Virus record (IMG/VR): IMGVR_UViG_2693429524_000001 | Span: 1-7,460 of that record | Direction: 5' to 3' (one strand) | Source of the DNA: a virus | Lineage: Duplodnaviria; Heunggongvirae; Uroviricota; Caudoviricetes | DNA length: 7,460 bases | Notes under the pieces: generated by a model | Seen by the model: only the letters and a program-made list of their open reading frames with translations | Database searches by the model: none | Told to the model about the DNA's origin: nothing | Translations under genes and position numbers: made by a program | Shown: piece after piece, positions 5,330 through 7,460 of the stretch | How positions within the stretch are numbered: the stretch's first letter is position 1 | Layout of the letters: every line of letters starts with the position of its first letter

Positions 5330-5911
5330 TTACTTGTTTTTGCCATGCTTATCCTGAGCGATAAGTTCATCCATAAGGCTGTCTTTCTTCCCAGCAAACC
5401 TAATGTAGCACTCATTTCTATAGCGTTCAGGGATAACAAAACGGTCGATTTCAGGATATCCAGTAGCAGAAGGTATCCGAATAAGAAGCCCTTTTTCGAG
5501 CAATGAGATTGCTTCATGGCTTCCCTTTTCTGTCTTTAGCTGGTTATTCGCGGCTACAGCGAATGCCAAATACGCTCTTTCTCCAAGAGTTAACGAATCA
5601 AACAAATCTTGCACATATTTTTCTTCTTTAGATTTGCGCTTCTGAGCAGCGGATACCTCAATTCTTTCAGTCACAGCGTGATAAGCGGAATTAACAACAC
5701 CGTTAAGCACATAGCTAACGCAGAACAACAGGATGTAATACATCCAATAATGAGGAAGGATTTCTGGATTATGCAGGTTTATCCATTCTTTTACGCTTAC
5801 CGGCATAACAATAATCAATATGATCAGGATGATTAGCATATGAATCAACTGTTTAAGTGTCATTCCTTGCAGGAAAAAATGCATTAGTTCCTGCCACCAT
5901 GAGTTGTTCAT
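5330..5911 (-). CDS. sieB: Superinfection exclusion protein B (SieB), 193 aa, membrane-associated
   Basis: Product MNNSWWQELMHFFLQGMTLKQLIHMLIILIILIIVMPVSVKEWINLHNPEILPHYWMYYILLFCVSYVL... matches lambda SieB as I recall it. It is convergent with N, as in lambda. Hydrophobic N-terminal half. Confidence 0.75.
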   Translation of the reverse strand: MNNSWWQELMHFFLQGMTLKQLIHMLIILIILIIVMPVSVKEWINLHNPEILPHYWMYYILLFCVSYVLNGVVNSAYHAVTERIEVSAAQKRKSKEEKYVQDLFDSLTLGERAYLAFAVAANNQLKTEKGSHEAISLLEKGLLIRIPSATGYPEIDRFVIPERYRNECYIRFAGKKDSLMDELIAQDKHGKNK

Positions 5912-6054
5912 CGGCGTTTCTCTTTTGCTCTCTGTAGGGGTGAATAGAGTTTATCCGATTTCTCGCTGTAGGGGTACACGAGAACCACCGAGCCTGATGT
6001 GGTTAAAAGACAGGCACAATCTTTACTACCGCAATCCACTATTTAAGGTGATAT

Positions 6055-6504
6055 ATGGAAGAACAAGCAAACAAGATTCTCGTAGAACTACTGCAAAAAG
6101 CCAGTAATGGAATAGACGCGGCTGTTTCATTTAGCCAGGCACAGATTCCTGATGTTGTTCATCAGTTGCTGCTATGGAATATGGTTGACAGTCTGATTAA
6201 AACATTAATAGCCATTCTAACAATCCCACTGGTTTTCTGGTTTATGAAGAAGCAGTGCCAAAGAGTTGAGACAGGTAAAATCGGTGATGAAGGATACTCA
6301 TGGGAGAGGGGAAATCCCAAATACAGGCCGACAATGGTTTGGGATAGCAAAGGAGATATTAACCTTCTTATCATGCCATTGGTTGGAGTTTTGACTCTGT
6401 GGGGGATTTTTATTATTGGTGTAGTAACCAATATGACTTGGTTAAAAATTTGGCTGGCCCCAAAACTTTACCTTATCGAATATGCAGCATCATTGGTTAA
6501 GTAA
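6055..6504 (+). CDS. Hypothetical inner-membrane protein, 149 aa, two predicted TM helices
   Basis: Complete ORF with SD AAGGTG upstream. Hydrophobic segments LIKTLIAILTIPLVFWFM and INLLIMPLVGVLTLWGIFIIGVV. Divergent from sieB, in the PL-operon direction. No family recognised. Confidence 0.6.
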   Translation: MEEQANKILVELLQKASNGIDAAVSFSQAQIPDVVHQLLLWNMVDSLIKTLIAILTIPLVFWFMKKQCQRVETGKIGDEGYSWERGNPKYRPTMVWDSKGDINLLIMPLVGVLTLWGIFIIGVVTNMTWLKIWLAPKLYLIEYAASLVK

Positions 6505-6508
6505 TTTC

Positions 6509-6535
6509 AGGCCGCATAGTCGGCCTTTATTTTTG
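6509..6535 (+). terminator. Intrinsic terminator after the 149-aa membrane protein gene
   Basis: AGGCCG-CATAGT-CGGCCT hairpin followed by TTATTTTT, 5 bp after the stop codon. Confidence 0.5.
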
Positions 6536-6556
6536 GCATAAACAACAGAGGCTAAC

Positions 6557-6847
6557 ATGGAATTTAAAGGTACCGAAGGTAAGTGGGAAATAATGATGGA
6601 TGGCGATGAGATTAAAATCATCCAGGCAGACTCACTTGAAAATGGCGCAGGCTGGCGTTCGTATATTGCAATCTGTGAGGAAGTTCAATGCATTGAAGAT
6701 GCCAATCTAATAGCGGCAGCACCTGACCTTTTAAATGCCCTGCAAGCGATGCTAAACAAGGCATACAAGCAAAACTGGAATGACCATTATCCTGATGAAG
6801 TATCGAAAGCACAGTCAGCAATCAGCAAAGCTCTTGGGGAAGAATGA
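6557..6847 (+). CDS. Hypothetical acidic protein, 96 aa
   Basis: Complete ORF. SD AGAGG is 5 nt before the ATG. Its stop overlaps the start of the next small ORF. No family recognised. Confidence 0.55.
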   Translation: MEFKGTEGKWEIMMDGDEIKIIQADSLENGAGWRSYIAICEEVQCIEDANLIAAAPDLLNALQAMLNKAYKQNWNDHYPDEVSKAQSAISKALGEE

Positions 6848-7005
6848 TGAATAAGAAATACATCGTTGAAGTTATAGAGCGAGAAACGAAAGAAGTAATT
6901 AAACATTTCGAATTTGATAATTATAGAAAAGCTGACCGCGTAGAAGAGGGATTGTTGCGGCAAAGTAATCTCGAAAAATTTGATGTTGTCATGCGATGCG
7001 AATAA
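6844..7005 (+). CDS. Small hypothetical protein, 53 aa (MMNKKYIVEVIERETKEVIKHFEFDNYRKADRVEEGLLRQSNLEKFDVVMRCE), below the ORF-track size cut-off
   Basis: ATGATGA overlap with the stop of the preceding gene (translational-coupling arrangement). Charged, Lys/Glu-rich. Translated by hand from the sequence. Confidence 0.4.
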   Translation: MMNKKYIVEVIERETKEVIKHFEFDNYRKADRVEEGLLRQSNLEKFDVVMRCE

Positions 7006-7099
7006 GCGCCTATAGCAGATTTGCGAGTCTGCTATGTGAGCAATGTCGCTCGTAACTAAACAGGAGCCGACTTGTTCTGATTATTGGAAATCTTCTTTG

Positions 7100-7124
7100 C
7101 CCTCCAGTGTGAGGGCCTTTTTAT
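7100..7124 (+). terminator. Intrinsic terminator-like hairpin
   Basis: GCCCTC-CAGTGT-GAGGGC followed by CTTTTTAT. Confidence 0.45.
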
Positions 7125-7188
7125 ATGCATACCAATAACGCTTCACTCGAGGCGTTTTCGTTATGCAATCAAACAGAAGGAGCATCCT

Positions 7189-7249
7189 ATGCAACAGTTC
7201 GCTATTGCAGGGCGGCATCGGTTCGCCCTTTCAACCCGATTTTATCGGT
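7189..7249 (+). pseudogene. Possible 5' remnant of a PL-operon gene truncated by IS insertion (20 codons before the IS end)
   Basis: Strong SD AAGGAG is 7 nt before the ATG at 7189. The ORF (MQQFAIAGRHRFALSTRFYR...) runs straight into the IS terminal repeat at 7250 and continues antisense to the transposase. Could equally be a chance ORF. Confidence 0.25.
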
Positions 7250-7460
7250 TGAACCGCCCCGGGTTTCCTGGAGAGTGTTTTATCTGTGAACTCAGGCTGC
7301 CAGATCATCTTTTCCGATGGAAGCATAATAAGCTTTTTCTGCTTCTGCCGGAGGAGTATGGCCCAGCCTTCCCAGCAATCGTCGATTGTTATACCAGTCC
7401 ACCCACGTTAGTGTGGCCAGTTCCACTTCTGCACGGTTTTTCCAGCTCTTACGGTGTATT
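7250..7460 (-). mobile_element. IS3-family insertion sequence (IS629-like), right-end portion; element continues beyond the window end
   Basis: Terminal sequence TGAACCGCCCCGGGTTTCCTGGAGAG starting at 7250 matches my memory of the IS629/IS1203 terminal inverted repeat. The transposase stop is 42 bp inside this end. Confidence 0.6.
7292..7460 (-). CDS. IS3-family transposase OrfB (integrase-core C-terminus), partial: last 55 codons only
   Basis: Minus-strand translation ...IHRKSWKNRAEVELATLTWVDWYNNRRLLGRLGHTPPAEAEKAYYASIGKDDLAA* has the C-terminal motifs typical of IS3-family OrfB transposases. No start codon in the window. Confidence 0.8.
   Translation of the reverse strand, partial: IHRKSWKNRAEVELATLTWVDWYNNRRLLGRLGHTPPAEAEKAYYASIGKDDLAA

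Follow-up and report, generated by a model that had tools for sequence, protein, structure and literature searches.

Three adjacent genes in the PL operon of a lambdoid prophage as separately shuffled accessory cargo

Three open reading frames between sieB and an insertion sequence

The window analysed here, a stretch of 7,460 nucleotides (positions 1 to 7,460 of IMG/VR record IMGVR_UViG_2693429524_000001), comprises the immunity and early region of a lambdoid prophage, and we focused on three adjacent open reading frames (ORFs) in it, referred to as genes A, B and C. Gene A (6055..6504, + strand) encodes a 149-amino-acid, two-helix membrane protein of the Sf6 gene 34 family (phrog_3054); gene B (6557..6847, +) an acidic protein of 96 amino acids that belongs to phrog_1273, has homologues carrying PF27050 and contains an invariant LIAAAPDLL motif; and gene C (6844..7005, +) a 53-residue protein of phrog_6949. 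The start of C overlaps the stop of B in the sequence ATGATGA, a 4-nt ATGA overlap. All three lie on the PL strand, downstream of the antiterminator gene N and of sieB and upstream of an insertion sequence (IS) end that begins at 7250. An initial annotation of this DNA had placed three such ORFs of 149, 96 and 53 amino acids (two-transmembrane, acidic and charged, respectively, the last two joined by the ATGATGA overlap) in the PL operon between sieB and the IS, and both the ORF list and the sequence agree with that description. Our analysis indicates that they are three independent accessory genes which most probably came to stand side by side through mosaic recombination in the variable 'Ral/SieB' slot of the operon.

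Comparative evidence indicates that A, B and C are real genes under purifying selection and not chance ORFs. The initial annotation could assign them to no family, which holds for characterised families but not for catalogued ones, since each protein matches a PHROG profile over its full length and is a member of it: A matches phrog_3054 (E 2.8e-64, residues 1-149 against profile positions 1-137 of 137), B matches phrog_1273 (E 4.4e-31) and C matches phrog_6949 (E 3.4e-40, residues 2-53 against positions 1-52 of 52), while PF27050, a recent Pfam accession, is precomputed on nearly all B homologues. The three are already catalogued as hypothetical proteins in an accessory region that has been described. 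Scans of A, B and C against Pfam, NCBIfam and PADLOC gave nothing significant, the weak matches (DUF4358, FlaG and an acyl carrier protein model) being far under the cut-offs, and the PADLOC-DB defence models yielded 0 families for the three at E<=10. Profile searches against solved structures with our alignments A1 and A2 had best E values of 0.96 and 0.21 and returned no relative, and altogether we detected no relative of the three among defence proteins, toxins, holins or solved structures. A literature search on the accession numbers, PF27050, phrog_3054 and Sf6 gene 34 found nothing relevant.

The distribution of the genes was determined by megablast with positions 5900-7100 as query against phage records and 5,426 complete E. 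coli genomes. No phage record matched the query over 80% or more of its length, and just 1 of the E. coli genomes did so. Full-length A was present in 130 of these genomes and B together with C in 64, the three being contiguous in that single one. About 3,260 places in the E. coli genomes match some part of the query, probably for the most part its conserved flanks; taking this number as the total of places, independent assortment predicts approximately 2-3 co-occurrences of A, B and C, and one was observed. The same picture emerged from two other collections. Neither B, C nor sieB was found within 6 kb of A in any of 22 GTDB loci with A relatives, sampled as one genome per species. Among 80 IMG/VR loci with close A relatives, sieB occurred in 8, B in 5 and C in 1, and the only locus with C belongs to contig L124, which derives from the prophage of the window itself (99.8% identity over 2055-7358). 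Conversely, 80 loci with B relatives included C in 4 cases and A in 1. Because their joint occurrence is so rare compared with the occurrence of each gene on its own, these distributions indicate that A, B and C are not a functional three-gene cassette, as had been proposed, but separate cargo genes that are shuffled independently. The proposal is largely refuted by the counts (1/5,426, 0/22 and 1/80), which show that the ORFs are not kept as a unit in related prophages, the very outcome that the initial annotation had named as speaking against it.

Joint mapping showed that each of the modules is bounded by short shared sequences. On the sieB side, A is joined through the 14-bp sequence GATATATGGAAGAA (6050..6063, +), which consists of the end of the ribosome-binding site plus the codons for Met-Glu-Glu. 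In enterotoxigenic E. coli (ETEC) H10407 this sequence occurs twice (3166-3179 and 3496-3509 of locus L027), at the start of the ORF that precedes ral and at that of gene A, and the approximately 310 bp between the two copies, ral included, are absent from the window; the loss of this segment looks like a deletion or exchange at micro-homology. Downstream of A, the intrinsic-terminator-like hairpin GGCCGCATAGTCGGCC plus its T-run (6509..6545, +) doubles as the mosaic joint between A and B: it also follows A in phage Gally, and in phage mEp043 it precedes B after an unrelated gene. Farther downstream is a conserved boundary sequence with tL2A-type terminator-like hairpins at 7099-7116 and 7137-7156 (7038..7249, +), corresponding to the Sf6 annotation 'bsq4; boundary sequence' plus the terminator tL2A. 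This block comes immediately after the equivalent of position 6549 in Gally, ETEC H10407 and others, which makes B plus C (6550-7037) a 488-bp insertion. The mosaicism reaches into B itself, whose N-terminal two-thirds are ~98% identical to the B of mEp043, while its C-terminal third is common to proteins with quite different N-terminal halves, the junction being the invariant LIAAAPDLL. The window illustrates cleanly how small recombination joints can be: one has the size of a ribosome-binding site, one that of a terminator hairpin and one that of a protein tail whose codons supply the Shine-Dalgarno sequence of the next gene.

The slot itself has been described. In the ranking of Silas et al. 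(bioRxiv 10.1101/2023.04.06.535777, Suppl. File 2; published in part as PMC12373910), the 'Ral' and 'RalSupEx' accessory regions are among the highest-scoring hotspots in enterobacteriophages, so that the earlier view of this region as a hotspot is well founded: it is a recognised hypervariable accessory region. The cassette as such is without importance, its adjacency resulting from mosaic recombination in a hotspot known for lambdoid and P22-like phages, and nothing here deserves further study except A, taken singly as a very widespread membrane protein.

Gene A and the Sf6 gene 34 family

Gene A, whose product is identical to WP_000392424.1, has hydrophobic segments at approximately residues 39-57 and 106-124, and the AlphaFold2 model places helices at 33-68 and 106-125. 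Compared with Sf6 gene 34, the namesake of phrog_3054, it sits at the same place, behind N and ral and ahead of the bsq4 boundary and tL2A, and has the same terminal motifs, while the central hairpin and loop are those of a different allele. This bipartite pattern holds throughout the family. The N-terminal ~42 residues are near-invariant (G[IV]DxAVxFxQxQ[IL]P[DE]V..QLLxW), as are the C-terminal ~22 (W[LI][KQ]I.xAPK.[YW]L.E[YF]AA), and the helices and the loop between them vary in sequence, the loop from ~8 to ~65 residues in length. We considered whether these conserved ends could be mere DNA boundary sequences and rejected this, since synonymous sites are heavily diverged: in the N-terminal 42 residues, 17-23 of the ~37 codons for identical residues differ synonymously from those of Pantoea, Leclercia and Pseudomonas relatives, and the C-terminal 22 codons behave alike. 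Because synonymous sites have diverged where residues are identical, the termini are evidently under purifying selection at the protein level.

The family is large. A profile search of 1.84 billion representatives (clusters at 50% identity) retrieved 2,565 clusters at E<=1e-3 and 1,167 at E<=1e-10, and the best 150 of the 2,565 clusters are all 70-184 amino acids long, too short for a fused second domain. No Pfam match was obtained for A at E<=1, and 10 distant family members were also without a relevant Pfam match. The family is present in 177 GenBank phage records, always annotated as a hypothetical or 'TMhelix' protein, and its carriers are both temperate and virulent phages of Gamma- and Betaproteobacteria. 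Among them are virulent N4-like Schitoviridae (Vibrio Pariacacavirus and Salmonella FSL SP-058), Justusliebigvirus (~146 kb), the Ralstonia jumbo phage RsoM2USA and Pseudomonas phage Lyrsu01; RsoM2USA (H111, MG752970.1) has three A-family places, suggesting paralogue expansion. No constant neighbour of A was found across the phage records. The view of A as a membrane protein with soluble partners is not supported by these data, as A is found alone in many types of phage, virulent ones included.

Where A occurs, its position differs with the phage. In N4-like phages it lies among the early and middle genes, which include those for RNA polymerase subunits, thymidylate synthase and dUTPase. In prophages it stands after N and ral, or directly after endolysin and Rz/spanin genes (PF03245, Phage_lysozyme, DUF2514), the latter in at least 5 of the 22 species-level loci and with an overlap of the Rz stop in Proteus and Providencia. 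In Pseudomonas and Rahnella it lies between the portal and terminase genes, on the opposite strand, and elsewhere it follows a DNA methyltransferase gene. Additionally, in Pseudomonas lundensis (L016) and Pseudocitrobacter (L019) the A homologue is followed by an opposite-strand ORF of 64-68 amino acids for a two-helix membrane protein (the small ORFs lying at 5802-5990 and 6533-6727 of L016 and at 6423-6629 of L019), and in L016 a 62-amino-acid ORF precedes the A homologue; this may be a local pairing that is not seen in the enterobacterial PL operons.

Among characterised systems, T4 Imm (PF14373) and the SieB of P22 and lambda (PF14163) resemble A in being small membrane proteins encoded by single genes of early or accessory regions, A having two helices. 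There is no sequence relationship between A and either of them, A lacking any Pfam match at E<=1 while the neighbouring sieB is recognised at 3.4e-24, and A differs further in its long conserved soluble or interfacial termini, which Imm does not possess. A large membrane family with strongly kept termini across phage lifestyles and in at least two accessory hotspots (post-ral and post-Rz) makes A a reasonable single-gene target.

Genes B and C and their common tail

Gene B encodes a protein with an isoelectric point of 4.4, whose AlphaFold2 model, with a predicted local distance difference test score (pLDDT) of 71.5, shows three short strands followed by two confident helices. Foldseek searches with this model against the PDB gave a best E value of 1.4 and no relative; against BFVD they gave many hits, all to uncharacterised phage proteins of ~100 amino acids, with template-modelling scores of 0.65-0.75. 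We found B relatives in 132 phage records, among which large virulent phages of Klebsiella, Proteus and Cronobacter are represented as well as Klebsiella phages of ~46-48 kb; some contigs contain two or three B paralogues. B would be a small, acidic, cytoplasmic protein whose fold is widespread in phages.

The N-terminal ~100 residues of Ead/Ea22 (PF13935) align with B, with a TxGxW motif, a beta region and the motif A.[LF]IAA.P..L.AL in common, and a profile-profile comparison (hhalign) of the B family with 37 Ead N-terminal segments reached a probability of 78.7% and an E value of 1.7e-5. With hmmscan at E<=1, PF13935 was found in 0 of the 33 B-family members of alignment A2, and B is without the coiled-coil C-terminal part of Ead/Ea22. 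A distant kinship between B and the N-terminal domain of Ead/Ea22 is possible. One phage record labels a B relative 'Ead protein'. The idea that LIAAAP is typical of Ead/Ea22 C-termini was not supported, a regular-expression search for the motif finding only B in the loci. In alignment A2, unrelated B-type N-terminal halves are fused at LIAAAPDLL to the same 'AMLNKAYKQNWNDHYPDEVSKAQ...' C-terminal segment.

Gene C encodes 12 acidic and 11 basic residues and is narrowly distributed, with 13 clusters among 5.8 billion proteins; among GenBank phages it occurs only in mEp043, mEp213 and APC_JM3.2. Comparison with the Cronobacter homologue showed that 23 of 41 identical residues use different codons, the differences being distributed 10:7:33 over the codon positions. 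C always lies directly behind an upstream gene, and that gene varies: it may be a B allele of 99%, 74% (mEp043) or 40% (mEp213) identity, an unrelated 53-amino-acid Cys-rich ORF, itself preceded by A, in Cronobacter, or a 78-amino-acid ORF that shares only the tail of B in Atlantibacter. What these genes have in common is an ...A(I)SKALGEE tail, whose codons GGGGAAGAA form the Shine-Dalgarno sequence of C (GGGGAAG), followed by an overlapping or abutting stop/start of C. Nearly all B variants end in ...AISKALGEE, with codons that give a Shine-Dalgarno sequence for the next gene. This arrangement indicates that C is translationally coupled to whichever gene precedes it, and because C follows different genes which share only the GEE tail and Shine-Dalgarno sequence, the linkage is translational and positional and not specific to B.

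Possible roles and the prophage setting

Our preferred explanation has the three genes acting separately. A would be a stand-alone inner-membrane protein whose near-invariant termini are the working parts, anchored by a variable helical hairpin, B a cytoplasmic protein of the fold described above, and C a short ORF whose translation is coupled to the upstream gene. As to function, our best guess is that A, working by itself, targets a component of the host envelope or inner membrane that is conserved across Proteobacteria, in Imm-like exclusion or in another form of envelope takeover; this role fits best because virulent phages carry A in their early regions and prophages carry it in two accessory hotspots. 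We hold it possible, although only tentatively, that A represents a huge family of stand-alone phage inner-membrane proteins with bipartite termini that target a conserved component of the host envelope, and hence a new class of exclusion or envelope-takeover proteins. Even if this were true, A, B and C would still not be a unit.

Expression was considered from the sequence signals. A consensus scan revealed no + strand promoter-like site between PL and the three genes (5912-6054 included), and intrinsic-terminator-like hairpins follow both A and C. A, B and C would be transcribed from PL by N-modified RNA polymerase, reading through the hairpins at 6509-6545 and 7099-7156, and would be expressed early in lytic growth and not in the repressed lysogen. 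Their position on the PL strand together with the lack of an own promoter-like site thus predicts lytic expression, unlike what a prophage defence module would need. Of the features of a moron, A shows a terminator-like hairpin behind it (6509-6526 plus T-run) and a conserved module that begins 10-24 bp before its ATG, with no + strand promoter-like site by the same consensus scan, which is a weak criterion.

Published screening data bear on two of the genes. Silas et al. synthesised 200 accessory genes and subjected them to fitness and phage-challenge screens in ECOR strains (bioRxiv 10.1101/2023.04.06.535777; PMC12373910). Their library contains a 121-amino-acid A-family member with two TMHMM helices from Salmonella phage SPN9CC (orf47, AEW47744.1) and C itself, starting at its second Met, from phage APC_JM3.2 (orf149, ATN92755.1), while B is absent from it (bioRxiv 10.1101/2023.04.06.535777). 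In PMC12373910, Imm, Cor, UDP79 and UDP183 are among the reported conditional-lethal, counter-defence or exclusion hits and orf47 and orf149 are not. The screen notes list the hits 'among others', and the authors describe exclusion phenotypes as variable and hard to detect (PMC12373910), so we read the absence of orf47 and orf149 as weak negative evidence. From the same accessory region, orf184 of mEp213 (JQ182733.1 30588..30265) triggers the gop-beta-cII abortive system (Silas et al., bioRxiv 10.1101/2023.04.06.535777); this gene lies ~1 kb downstream of the B-like gene and C of mEp213 and is unrelated to A, B and C.

Several points weigh against the explanation that we prefer. The proposed exclusion role of A is a best guess drawn from its size, membrane location, hotspot position and occurrence in the early regions of virulent phages. 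The AlphaFold2 model of A has a low confidence (pLDDT 65), and the charge counts over 18 family members (net -47 for the N tail, +18 for the loop and +18 for the C tail) do not settle its membrane topology by the positive-inside rule. The absence of a promoter comes from a consensus scan alone, weak evidence that leaves expression in the prophage possible. Finally, the screen notes, which cover T2-T7, P1 and lambda vir (PMC12373910 Suppl. Dataset 1), do not name orf47 among the superinfection-exclusion or counter-defence hits.

We compared this explanation with four others. At least one of A, B and C could be a counter-defence protein that inhibits host immunity early in infection, in the manner of Ral, Gam or Abc2. 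This would agree with an early operon inside the Ral accessory region, from which ral and orf184 do interact with defences, as well as with the small size and acidity of B and the presence of the A and B families in virulent phages. We nevertheless regard it as unlikely, given that the three proteins have no homology to known anti-defence proteins and that neither orf47 nor orf149 is among the counter-defence or cell-death-trigger hits reported by the screen across ~20 ECOR hosts.

A role of A in lysis, as a membrane protein that sets its timing or assists it (antiholin-like or spanin-associated), with the PL location of A being secondary, appears quite unlikely. It is suggested by the copies that stand right behind endolysin and Rz/spanin genes, down to the overlap with the Rz stop, and by the small two-helix architecture that A shares with many holins and antiholins. 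Most enterobacterial phages, however, carry A in their early-left operon, and its neighbours in N4-like phages are early and middle genes. A has no holin match in Pfam, and the lysis-linked copies sit downstream of Rz and not at the holin position; the post-Rz slot is itself an accessory hotspot, the 'Bor', 'Rz' and 'LysUnk' regions being known as such (bioRxiv 10.1101/2023.04.06.535777). Holins would also be too diverse for a single regulator with invariant termini to bind them all.

A further alternative is that B and C were inserted together as a two-gene unit, for instance a pair with an anti-defence or toxin-antitoxin-like function. The 4-nt overlap, the single 488-bp insertion relative to Gally and the constant position of C behind an upstream gene, kept even with the divergent B alleles of mEp043 and mEp213, are what such a pair would display. 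We consider it very doubtful, as C is present in only 4 of 76 loci with B relatives and stands behind other ORFs in Cronobacter and Atlantibacter, its link being to the ...GEE tail and Shine-Dalgarno sequence and not to B; neither gene has toxin-antitoxin, Pfam, PADLOC or NCBIfam matches, and orf149 alone is not listed among the conditionally lethal genes of the screen.

Lastly, the adjacency of three ORFs on one strand with the B-C overlap, their place beside sieB in a hotspot that carries exclusion genes, a rare parallel ral-A-B-C order in E. coli 20KM2222 and the Cronobacter case of A and C flanking a different middle gene would suit a prophage-expressed exclusion or abortive-infection module of a membrane effector and two soluble partners, with or without sieB, but this is highly improbable in view of the single trio against 130 genomes with A and 64 with B plus C (and 0/22 and 1/80 elsewhere), the joints and terminator that delimit A, the solitary A genes of virulent phages, the lack of PADLOC matches and of an own promoter-like site, and the absence of orf47 and orf149 from the reported screen hits. 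Of the module that the initial annotation had envisaged, only the hotspot position is retained; PADLOC, the screen and the promoter scan all speak against it.

Separately shuffled genes, as we prefer to see A, B and C, sit here in an otherwise recognisable lambdoid context. NinB, a Lar-like ORF, P, O, cII and cro occupy the minus strand of the window, and cI lies at 4077-4727 (+). A PL-like promoter, TTGACC-17-TAAATT (4818..4846, +), was recognised from its match to the consensus and its position between cI and N; the scan gave no other + strand site of this kind ahead of the three ORFs. It is followed by the antiterminator gene N (5041..5313, +; Pfam N_peptide 1.1e-15, phrog_271). The sieB gene (5330..5911, -; Pfam SieB 3.4e-24, phrog_1301 5e-123) is convergent with N and antisense to PL transcription. 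The end of an IS1203/IS629 element of the IS3 family (7250..7460, -), annotated as an IS3-like element IS1203 family transposase and 99.5% identical to the copies of E. coli O157:H7, lies directly 3' of the tL2A-type boundary block and interrupts the PL operon ahead of cIII, kil and the recombination genes. Because the IS severs the operon before these genes, the prophage is probably defective. The L124 contig of this prophage ends within IS1203/IS629.

On the other arm, a Lar-type restriction-alleviation domain (~550-750, -; Pfam Lar_restr_allev 6.7e-10) lies within the ORF at 509-952 and adjoins NinB in the nin region; with ral absent from PL, the prophage thus has no ral in that operon and instead carries a Lar-like gene on its other arm. 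An Rfam scan of 4700-7460 returned nothing above chance. Between sieB and A (5925-5975), the direct repeat CTGTAGGGGT occurs in copies ~40 bp apart, at the location expected for the sieB promoter. Another promoter-like site is located inside the sieB coding region (5863-5835, -), and it could relate to the internal start (esc) of P22 and lambda sieB.

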